From NCBI RefSeq assembly GCF_003334255.1, contig NZ_QOWU01000003.1: a DNA stretch of 64,000 nucleotides; one strand, 5' to 3'. Position 1 is the stretch's first letter. Each line of letters begins with the position of its first letter. The DNA is from Escherichia coli (lineage in GTDB: Bacteria; Pseudomonadota; Gammaproteobacteria; Enterobacterales; Enterobacteriaceae). Both the position numbers and the translations under genes were made by a program. Positions 46,921 through 47,551 of the stretch are shown here, one piece after another. The notes beneath the pieces were generated by a model that saw nothing but the letters and a program-made list of their open reading frames with translations, did not search any database and had not been told where the DNA came from.

Positions 46921-47174
46921 CCCGCCGGAACGGTTTATTACGTACATCAGGTAAAACTGACCGATAAGCCGCTTTCTTTTGGGTATAGTGTCGTGGACAG
47001 TCATTCATCTTTCTGCCCCTCCAAAAGTAAAAACCCGCCGAAGCGGGTTTTTACGTAAAACAGGTGAAACTGACCGATAAGCCGCTTTCTTTTGGGTATA
47101 GTGTCGTGGACAGTCATTCATCTTTCTGCCCCTCCAAAAGCAAAAACCCGCCGAAGCGGGTTTTTACGTAAATC
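46921..47174 (-). repeat. Direct repeats (about 113 bp each, about 2.3 copies) duplicating the 3' end of rnpB plus its terminator
   Basis: caggtgaaactgaccgataagccg...gtcgtggacagtcattcatct...aaaaacccgccgaagcgggttttt recurs at about 46948, 47061 and in rnpB at 47175. Confidence 0.85.
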
Positions 47175-47551
47175 AGGTGAAACTGACCGATAAGCCGGGT
47201 TCTGTCGTGGACAGTCATTCATCTAGGCCAGCAATCGCTCACTGGCTCAAGCAGCCTACCCGGGTTCAGTACGGGCCGTACCTTATGAACCCCTATTTGG
47301 CCTTGCTCCGGGTGGAGTTTACCGTGCCACGGACTGTTACCAGCCGCGCGGTGCGCTCTTACCGCACCCTTTCACCCTTACCTGATCCCGCTTGCGCGGG
47401 CCATCGGCGGTTTGCTCTCTGTTGCACTGGTCGTGGGTTTCCCCCCCAGGCGTTACCTGGCACCCTGCCCTATGGAGCCCGGACTTTCCTCCCCTCCGCC
47501 CGTCTCCCCCGAAGAGGACGACGACGAAGCGGCGACTGTCTGGTCAGCTTC
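47175..47551 (-). ncRNA. rnpB: RNase P RNA (M1 RNA), 377 nt
   Basis: Minus-strand sequence begins GAAGCUGACCAGACAGUCGCCGCUUCGUCGUCGUCCUCUUCGGGGGAGACGGGCGGAGGGGAGGAAAGUCCGGGCUCCAUAGGGCAGGGUGCCAGGUAACGCC... and ends ...CGGUCAGUUUCACCU, matching M1 RNA. Confidence 0.95.

Follow-up and report, generated by a model that had tools for sequence, protein, structure and literature searches.

Why is rnpB, the gene for RNase P RNA (M1 RNA), followed in E. coli by tandem copies of what looks like its own 3′ end, and how do such copies stay alike and turn over next to an essential RNA gene? We examined this question in a 64-kb stretch of E. coli DNA (hereafter the window) and in related genomes. The first-pass annotation of the window had claimed that rnpB is followed by tandem copies of its own 3′ end together with the terminator, and this was confirmed by an Rfam search and Tandem Repeats Finder. 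The features are listed in Table 1. Both rnpB and its array lie on the minus strand, and "downstream" accordingly refers to lower coordinates.

The Rfam model RNaseP_bact_a matched rnpB with 318.6 bits (E 1.6e-104) and was covered in full (model 1-367), which makes the RNA a class A molecule; near-identical or identical E. coli records annotate the same stretch as rnpB. No family besides RNase P was found by the Rfam search of 44000-50000. The 951 bp around rnpB were 100% identical to those of E. coli strain G6/7. A promoter-like site ends 8 nt ahead of the M1 5′ end, and its position suggests that it is the rnpB promoter. The neighbors of rnpB are garK on the minus strand and yhaC on the plus strand, the latter ending at 46674 and being convergent with rnpB. 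The 3′ end of yhaC itself contains, at 46583-46623, an imperfect tandem repeat with a period of 18 bp, 2.3 copies and 79% matches.

Table 1. Features of the rnpB locus, in window coordinates.
Feature	Position	Strand	Basis
rnpB promoter-like site, GTGACA-17 nt-TATACT	47559..47587	-	consensus scan, 10/12 matches
rnpB, RNase P RNA (M1 RNA), 377 nt	47175..47551	-	Rfam RF00010 match and annotation
Unit A: trailer, T1, 19-nt spacer, pseudo 3′ end 1	47061..47173	-	
T1 hairpin AAAAACCCGC-TTCG-GCGGGTTTTT, first after rnpB, two-way terminator shape	47142..47165	.	folding
Pseudo 3′ end 1 of unit A	H1 47103-47122; insert 47084-47102; core + 3′ block 47061-47083		
Unit B: trailer, T2, spacer, pseudo 3′ end 2 (H1 46990-47009)	46948..47060	-	
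T2 hairpin, intact, two-way shape	47029..47052	.	folding
38-codon ORF from the H1 ATG, after GGAGG, ending in the ATGA of the next unit	47005..47121	-	
33-codon sister ORF	46907-47008		
Partial third unit: trailer and decayed hairpin (AAACCGTTCCGGCGGGTTTCAG)	46916..46947	-	20/24 identity to hairpin part
REP/BIME-type dispersed palindromic elements, between array and relic	46795..46912	.	
Relic of older unit, adjoining yhaC end	~46700..46794	-	repeat families and unit alignment

Tandem Repeats Finder reported a period of 113 bp and 2.5 copies at 46918-47197 (94% matches, without indels, score 504); the gene ends at 47175, and the array begins directly past this mature 3′ end on the same strand. 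For the two full units, at 47061-47173 and 46948-47060, an alignment to each other with a threshold of 90 percent identity had been proposed as a check, and they were identical at 110 of 113 positions (97.3%), far above chance. A unit-specific 25-mer did not occur anywhere else within the 64-kb window. In the RNA sense, each unit consists of a trailer of 8-10 nt, a GC-rich hairpin (AAAAACCCGC-UUCG-GCGGGUUUUU) flanked by A5 and T5 tracts, a 19-nt spacer and a pseudo M1 3′ end, the last of which is composed of H1 (GATGAATGACTGTCCACGAC), a unit-specific insert and a core/3′ block (GGCTTATCGGTCAGTTTCACCT).

The units had been described as the last ~50 nt of M1 plus a hairpin, which is correct in part. 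H1 has 22 nt (AGATGAATGACTGTCCACGACA) identical to gene positions 47203-47224, and the 3′ block has 24 nt (CGGCTTATCGGTCAGTTTCACCTG) identical to the M1 end at 47174-47197; the units also share a 31-nt block of trailer plus hairpin. However, AGAACCC of the gene appears as (A/G)CTATACCCAAAAGAAAGC in the units, which amounts to a 12-nt insertion and two substitutions. They fall in the 3′ strand of helix P4 of RNase P RNA. These changes remove the P4 strand, so that the units are pseudo 3′ ends that cannot be used as such. The core CTTATCGGTCAG was found in rnpB and in both units of the window.

T1 is located within 36 nt past the mature M1 3′ end, in agreement with the end of pM1 RNA 36 nt after the mature end. 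For the minus strand, the folding energy was −19.4 kcal/mol both for T1 (z −5.6) and for T2; for the plus strand, it was −13.9 kcal/mol for T1 and −18.5 kcal/mol for T2, and no shuffled sequence folded as well as T2. Both have the sequence of an intrinsic (Rho-independent) terminator, namely a stable GC-rich hairpin (z about −5.6) followed by U5, and they also have what is expected in sequence of a two-way terminator, with an A tract on the 5′ side, a T tract on the 3′ side, folds on both strands and a position between the convergent genes yhaC and rnpB. A consensus terminator scan flagged neither T1 nor T2, probably because their A and T tracts pair together, and direct folding was used in its place. 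The claim that every copy carries a terminator had to be given up, since the third hairpin (46916-46939) gave −6.8 kcal/mol, with 158 of 200 shuffles at least as stable, and has no U tract; it is decayed and is not an intrinsic terminator. The rnpB T1 is a standard terminator part whose activity was measured (PMC3643576). For the locus itself, we infer the terminator activity of T1 and T2, as well as any selective value of the array, and the roles proposed for the array, backup termination and 3′ processing, are plausible.

The partial copy noted at 46921-46944 was also recovered, matching the hairpin part of the units at 20 of 24 positions. The stretch beyond it, 46795-46912, is presumably REP, as judged from its sequence (GCCTGATGCGCTACGCTTATCAGGCCTAC), and a query including this stretch matched E. 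coli genomes at a median of 36 places each. The relic next to yhaC was identified via the repeat families D2 and D3 and by alignment to the units of Salmonella and of strain SCPM8794; it contains a decayed core, a decayed hairpin of the long type, TTTTTGCTTTTGG and a decayed H1 (GATGAATAAATATCTACGG). In UPEC 26-1, which has 0 units, T1 is fused to exactly this relic at the shared TTTTTGCTTTTGG, and this junction bears the signature of a homology-mediated deletion.

That repeats are a recognized feature of the rnpB locus, as had been stated, was supported by K-12 MC4100, where Tandem Repeats Finder gave the same 113-bp period and the same consensus unit with 3.5 copies (96%). The array stretch (window 46918-47600) was 98.5% identical to K-12. 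Reportedly, a 113-bp repeat in the 3′ flank of K-12 rnpB was found by Reed et al. in 1982, and Reed and Altman are said to have described the 113-bp repeat 3′ of K-12 rnpB in 1983 and to have proposed that its units contain ORFs for small peptides. The two arrays have the same locus, period and unit sequence, and likewise the homology to the M1 3′ end, the terminator hairpin and the small ORFs, whereas the window array has one unit fewer (2.5 vs. 3.5 copies). What the window contains is therefore the long-known 113-bp array after rnpB with two full units, which is ordinary for E. coli.

The copy number was surveyed with a single unit as query against 5,426 complete E. coli genomes. Of these, 5,395 gave matches, at 1 to 8 places each; at least one full unit was present in 3,893, and the T1 part alone in about 1,500, so that ~28% of the sampled genomes are without any unit. 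Across all 5,426 genomes the unit count was 0 to about 8. Alleles with 0, 1, 2, 3 and 4 units were read, which is the variable copy number that characterizes a minisatellite. For example, E. coli 90-9280 has one unit behind a longer, different T1 hairpin, and E. coli WP5-S17-ESBL-11 has four units. The suggestion that copy number may vary by strain is thus upheld by the census and by the alleles of 0, 1 and 4 units that were read directly. The assembly of Citrobacter youngae CCUG 30791 has two contigs (L099 and L100) that both end inside the rnpB array. The array broke this short-read assembly, and copy numbers taken from draft genomes are therefore unreliable.

The reading attributed to Reed and Altman, according to which the units encode small basic peptides, has some basis in E. 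coli: in each unit, an ATG preceded by GGAGG at 8-9 nt opens a 38-codon ORF (MNDCPRHYTQKKAAYRSVSPVLRKNPLRRVFTFGGAER), whose stop overlaps the ATG of the next unit as ATGA. However, the ORF is conserved only inside the Escherichia/Salmonella/Citrobacter group and is only 9 codons long in the units of Enterobacter sp. Ag1, Enterobacter sp. Bisph1, Cedecea, Pantoea, Erwinia and Pectobacterium, while GGAGG is present in E. coli only. Moreover, the C-terminal halves are wholly different wherever the hairpins differ, and the insert substitutions among Enterobacteriaceae are mostly non-synonymous. The ORF also crosses a terminator hairpin, and its mRNA would need to pass T1. We therefore regard a peptide as highly improbable and reject the coding reading; the unconserved ORF is a sequence feature, not a gene.

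To see how far the units extend beyond E. coli, one genome per species was scanned with an H1 20-mer, which gave at least 120 loci; this search needed a near-intact H1, and the sample is accordingly biased toward well-kept units. In a series of species, rnpB is followed by units built alike, with a period between 105 and 126 bp, and at least ten enteric genera have units that carry the same insertion. The species are Escherichia sp. SCPM-O-B-8794 (118 bp), E. albertii, Citrobacter youngae, Enterobacteriaceae RIT691, Pluralibacter sp., Enterobacter sp. Ag1, Enterobacter sp. Bisph1, Cedecea, Pantoea sp. IMH, Erwinia mallotivora, Pectobacterium betavasculorum and Brenneria roseae, and a Salmonella Kentucky contig has one unit. 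The order in Salmonella is gene, long hairpin, unit, short hairpin, and E. coli 90-9280 has the same order. On the other hand, no unit was found in at least eleven enteric species whose loci include >700 nt downstream of rnpB. The insert can be aligned between units of ten genera and has invariant positions; the units thus have a common origin, and they are old and shared across enteric genera.

In SCPM-O-B-8794, labeled E. coli and a separate GTDB species representative (L075 2241-2614), all hairpins are of the long CCCGTCAGTGCAAACTGGCGGG type and not of the K-12 type; its insert is identical to that of E. coli, and its downstream context differs, yhaC being absent. Kosakonia cowanii (L081 524-833) and a gammaproteobacterial MAG (L098 3952-4188) have tandem arrays directly after rnpB with periods of 101 and 83 bp, respectively. 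Being REP-like palindromes with no relation to the units derived from rnpB, these arrays were rejected.

In each of about 12 species, the hairpins and core of the units match the T1 and the gene of their own genome; for instance, the core is GGCTTAACGGTCAA in the Pectobacterium units and GGCTTACCGGTCAG in the Pantoea units. The decayed units are the distal ones within the arrays. Hairpins and cores resembling those of the own genome, together with distal decay, form the pattern that would be expected of unequal recombination between units.

Over the 19 nt of the insert, E. coli agrees with Salmonella at 19, with Pluralibacter at 18, and with Citrobacter and RIT691 at 16 positions each. In these four comparisons within Enterobacteriaceae, which cover five genera and few sequences, the insert is 91% identical vs. 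54% for the adjacent spacer and about 60% for the trailers. Between families the insert diverges strongly, and its similarity tracks host relationships. Nothing in the gene corresponds to the insert, so that conversion with the gene as donor cannot maintain it. Its conservation is unexpectedly high for a neutral repeat, even in a sample that is small and biased to well-kept units, and a neutral minisatellite alone leaves the 91% of the insert against the 54% of the spacer in five genera without explanation.

These values raise the possibility that the pseudo 3′ end itself is under selection, either as an RNA, namely a T1 read-through product between two hairpins whose H1 and core could pair with the M1 5′ strand, or as a DNA site bound by protein. 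The conservation of an insert that is not refreshed from the gene speaks for selection, as does the persistence of a homologous insert in Enterobacteriaceae, Erwiniaceae and Pectobacteriaceae although its loss is easy and irreversible. However, RNAalifold applied to ten units found 0 compensatory pairs and a covariation term of −0.04; all pairs were invariant, and covariation was scored for the parts of the unit outside the differing hairpins. A scan showed no promoter-like site inside the units, many strains and species are without units, the insert diverges strongly between families, and the conservation test consists of few sequences biased to near-intact H1. We thus consider selection on the pseudo 3′ end rather unlikely. 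Without a promoter-like site, compensatory pairs or an Rfam family, the units also do not have the features of a small regulatory RNA gene. A TATAGT in the insert that resembles a −10 box (plus strand) was discarded as a candidate, since it is present in some E. coli units only, has no −35 at a suitable distance and was not flagged by the scan. In a broader form, which we hold to be similarly doubtful, the pseudo 3′ end unit would be an ancient Enterobacterales rnpB module under selection with an insert near-invariant within Enterobacteriaceae. Such a module could predate the split of Enterobacteriaceae, Erwiniaceae and Pectobacteriaceae, or could have spread with rnpB-targeting islands, and it could act through a read-through RNA pairing with the M1 5′ strand or as a recombination or protein-binding site.

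Islands do target this gene. A conserved foreign arm (AAAACAATACGTTGGTGTG..., in which TGGGATACA-like motifs recur) is fused directly to rnpB or to the last unit in several species, and in 34 E. coli genomes this arm adjoins rnpB, where the gene's core served as the site. In E. coli YZ22PE67, a 7.7-kb island bounded by CTTATCGGTCAGTTTCACCT lies between rnpB and the array (L123 1679-9810) and encodes a 468-aa tyrosine recombinase adjoining rnpB as well as a primase-helicase. In E. coli CFSAN061761, an island with direct repeats at its ends lies between rnpB and yhaC (L124 19632-29200), with genes for a 486-aa tyrosine recombinase, flagellin and a phase-1 flagellin repressor. This gene content identifies it as the flk islet, the genomic islet of E. 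coli H3/H47-type strains described by Feng et al. 2008 (summarized in PMC3378880); Orf486 excises the islet via its direct repeats (PMC3378880). The two recombinases are 56% identical, and a relative is found at rnpB in Erwinia psidii. The core CTTATCGGTCAG(TTTCACCT) is present at both ends of both the YZ22PE67 and CFSAN061761 islands. These junctions show, at the level of sequence, that the repeated core CTTATCGGTCAG is used in other genomes as the attachment site of tyrosine-integrase islands, including the flk islet.

The consequences for rnpB are visible in CFSAN061761, where the M1 end is now CTTCAAC, supplied by the island, instead of TTTCACC, and the native M1 end, T1 and two units have been displaced to the far junction, 9 kb off. 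Both islands part rnpB from T1, so that in these strains the ends or the processing of its transcripts must be different. Units can serve as secondary integration sites, as indicated by Cedecea, where a unit core was used by a 3-kb island of which a remnant with both junctions is left. The unit core has apparently also been used in Erwinia mallotivora and Enterobacter sp. Bisph1, in both of which the last unit is joined to an island arm. The window has no island, and no insertion located in a unit was found among the E. coli insertions listed. The island remnants of Bisph1 (L005 1713-3278) and Cedecea (L088, from about 4900 onward) have similar upstream leaders and no integrase left, and by eye the ORFs that follow look PAAR-like in at least one case.

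The units themselves might then be scars or hitch-hikers of integrative elements, or might be kept as harmless secondary landing sites. In the scar version, a terminator and a pseudo 3′ end enter with an island and stay behind when the island is excised via the inner pair of cores. This accords with Cedecea, whose island lies between a unit core and a core-plus-terminator with both arms present, and with the last units of E. mallotivora and Bisph1 joined to island arms, the units of these two sharing TCC and a C in the core that are missing from their own genes; the order of gene, long hairpin, unit and short hairpin in Salmonella and E. coli 90-9280 is the predicted one. However, the two intact E. 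coli islands have no unit beside either arm, and their right arm is gene-like without the 12-nt insertion. Indeed, all three right arms compared are collinear with the gene (TAGATGCCTGAC...GAAGCCGG) and lack the insertion, indicating that present-day islands do not carry the unit. Furthermore, among the matches listed, 25 of 25 E. coli island insertions were at the gene's own core though units were available, insert similarity follows the hosts as would fit vertical descent, and Bisph1 may be a mere relative of Erwinia. We therefore judge an island origin of the units to be distinctly improbable. Two related ideas were dropped. A by-eye similarity suggesting that the units derive from the island right arm vanished when three arms were compared, and a BLAST search of unit plus arm for a phage attP with a unit, run against 50,697 phage records, had a 2.5-kb Salmonella contig as its sole match. 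This record, OR851195.1 ("Salmonella phage S.Kent 1-2-1"; L122 1-200), has the rnpB 3′ end, one unit and the flank, and is probably chromosomal Salmonella DNA, that is, host contamination of a phage assembly.

With the anatomy of the units, their copy-number variation, their homology across genera and, in other genomes, the use of their core as an attachment site demonstrated above, we consider it likely that the array is a minisatellite kept uniform by unequal recombination, whose hairpins act as backup two-way terminators between rnpB and yhaC. It would have originated by tandem duplication of the rnpB 3′ end together with its terminator, after which the downstream copy would have gained the 12-nt insertion and lost the P4 strand, so that it could no longer provide a working 3′ end. 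Unequal homologous recombination or replication slippage between units would then move the copy number up and down, and this turnover would keep hairpins and spacers similar to each other within a genome by concerted evolution, while distal units would escape homogenization and decay. T1 would terminate the rnpB primary transcript, with the unit hairpins as reserve terminators, which, being symmetric, would also block yhaC read-through antisense into rnpB. As a side effect, each unit duplicates the attachment core of rnpB-targeting tyrosine integrases, as seen in other genomes. Any benefit must be dispensable, given that ~28% of the sampled E. coli and at least eleven species are unit-free.

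The array resembles the tandem or two-way terminators found between convergent genes in its GC stem, its A/T tracts and its strong fold on both strands. Unlike ordinary tandem terminators, its hairpins are copies of T1 within a recombining repeat that carries a pseudo-gene end. It also resembles the island sites at tRNA and tmRNA genes with their duplicated 3′ ends: the attB is the 3′ end of a gene for a small structural RNA, a replacement end comes with the island, the native end is left at the far junction and the integrase gene lies beside the RNA gene. The difference from such island junctions is that the 113-bp units hold a chromosomal terminator with nothing between them and carry an insertion missing from both the gene and the island arms. 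As to the flk islet, the window is without the island, and the only link is that the core of the array is identical to the attachment sequence of the islet.

Since the array has been known since the early 1980s, its presence in the window as such changes little. What the comparative data add is an account of how a repeat beside an essential RNA gene stays uniform and turns over, and the comparison between species also lays the old small-peptide reading to rest. The array is further tied to the rnpB 3′ end as an island site, at which insertion replaces the terminal nucleotides of M1 and takes away its terminator. Should the conserved insert prove functional, it would point to an unrecognized layer in the making of RNase P RNA or in the targeting of islands.
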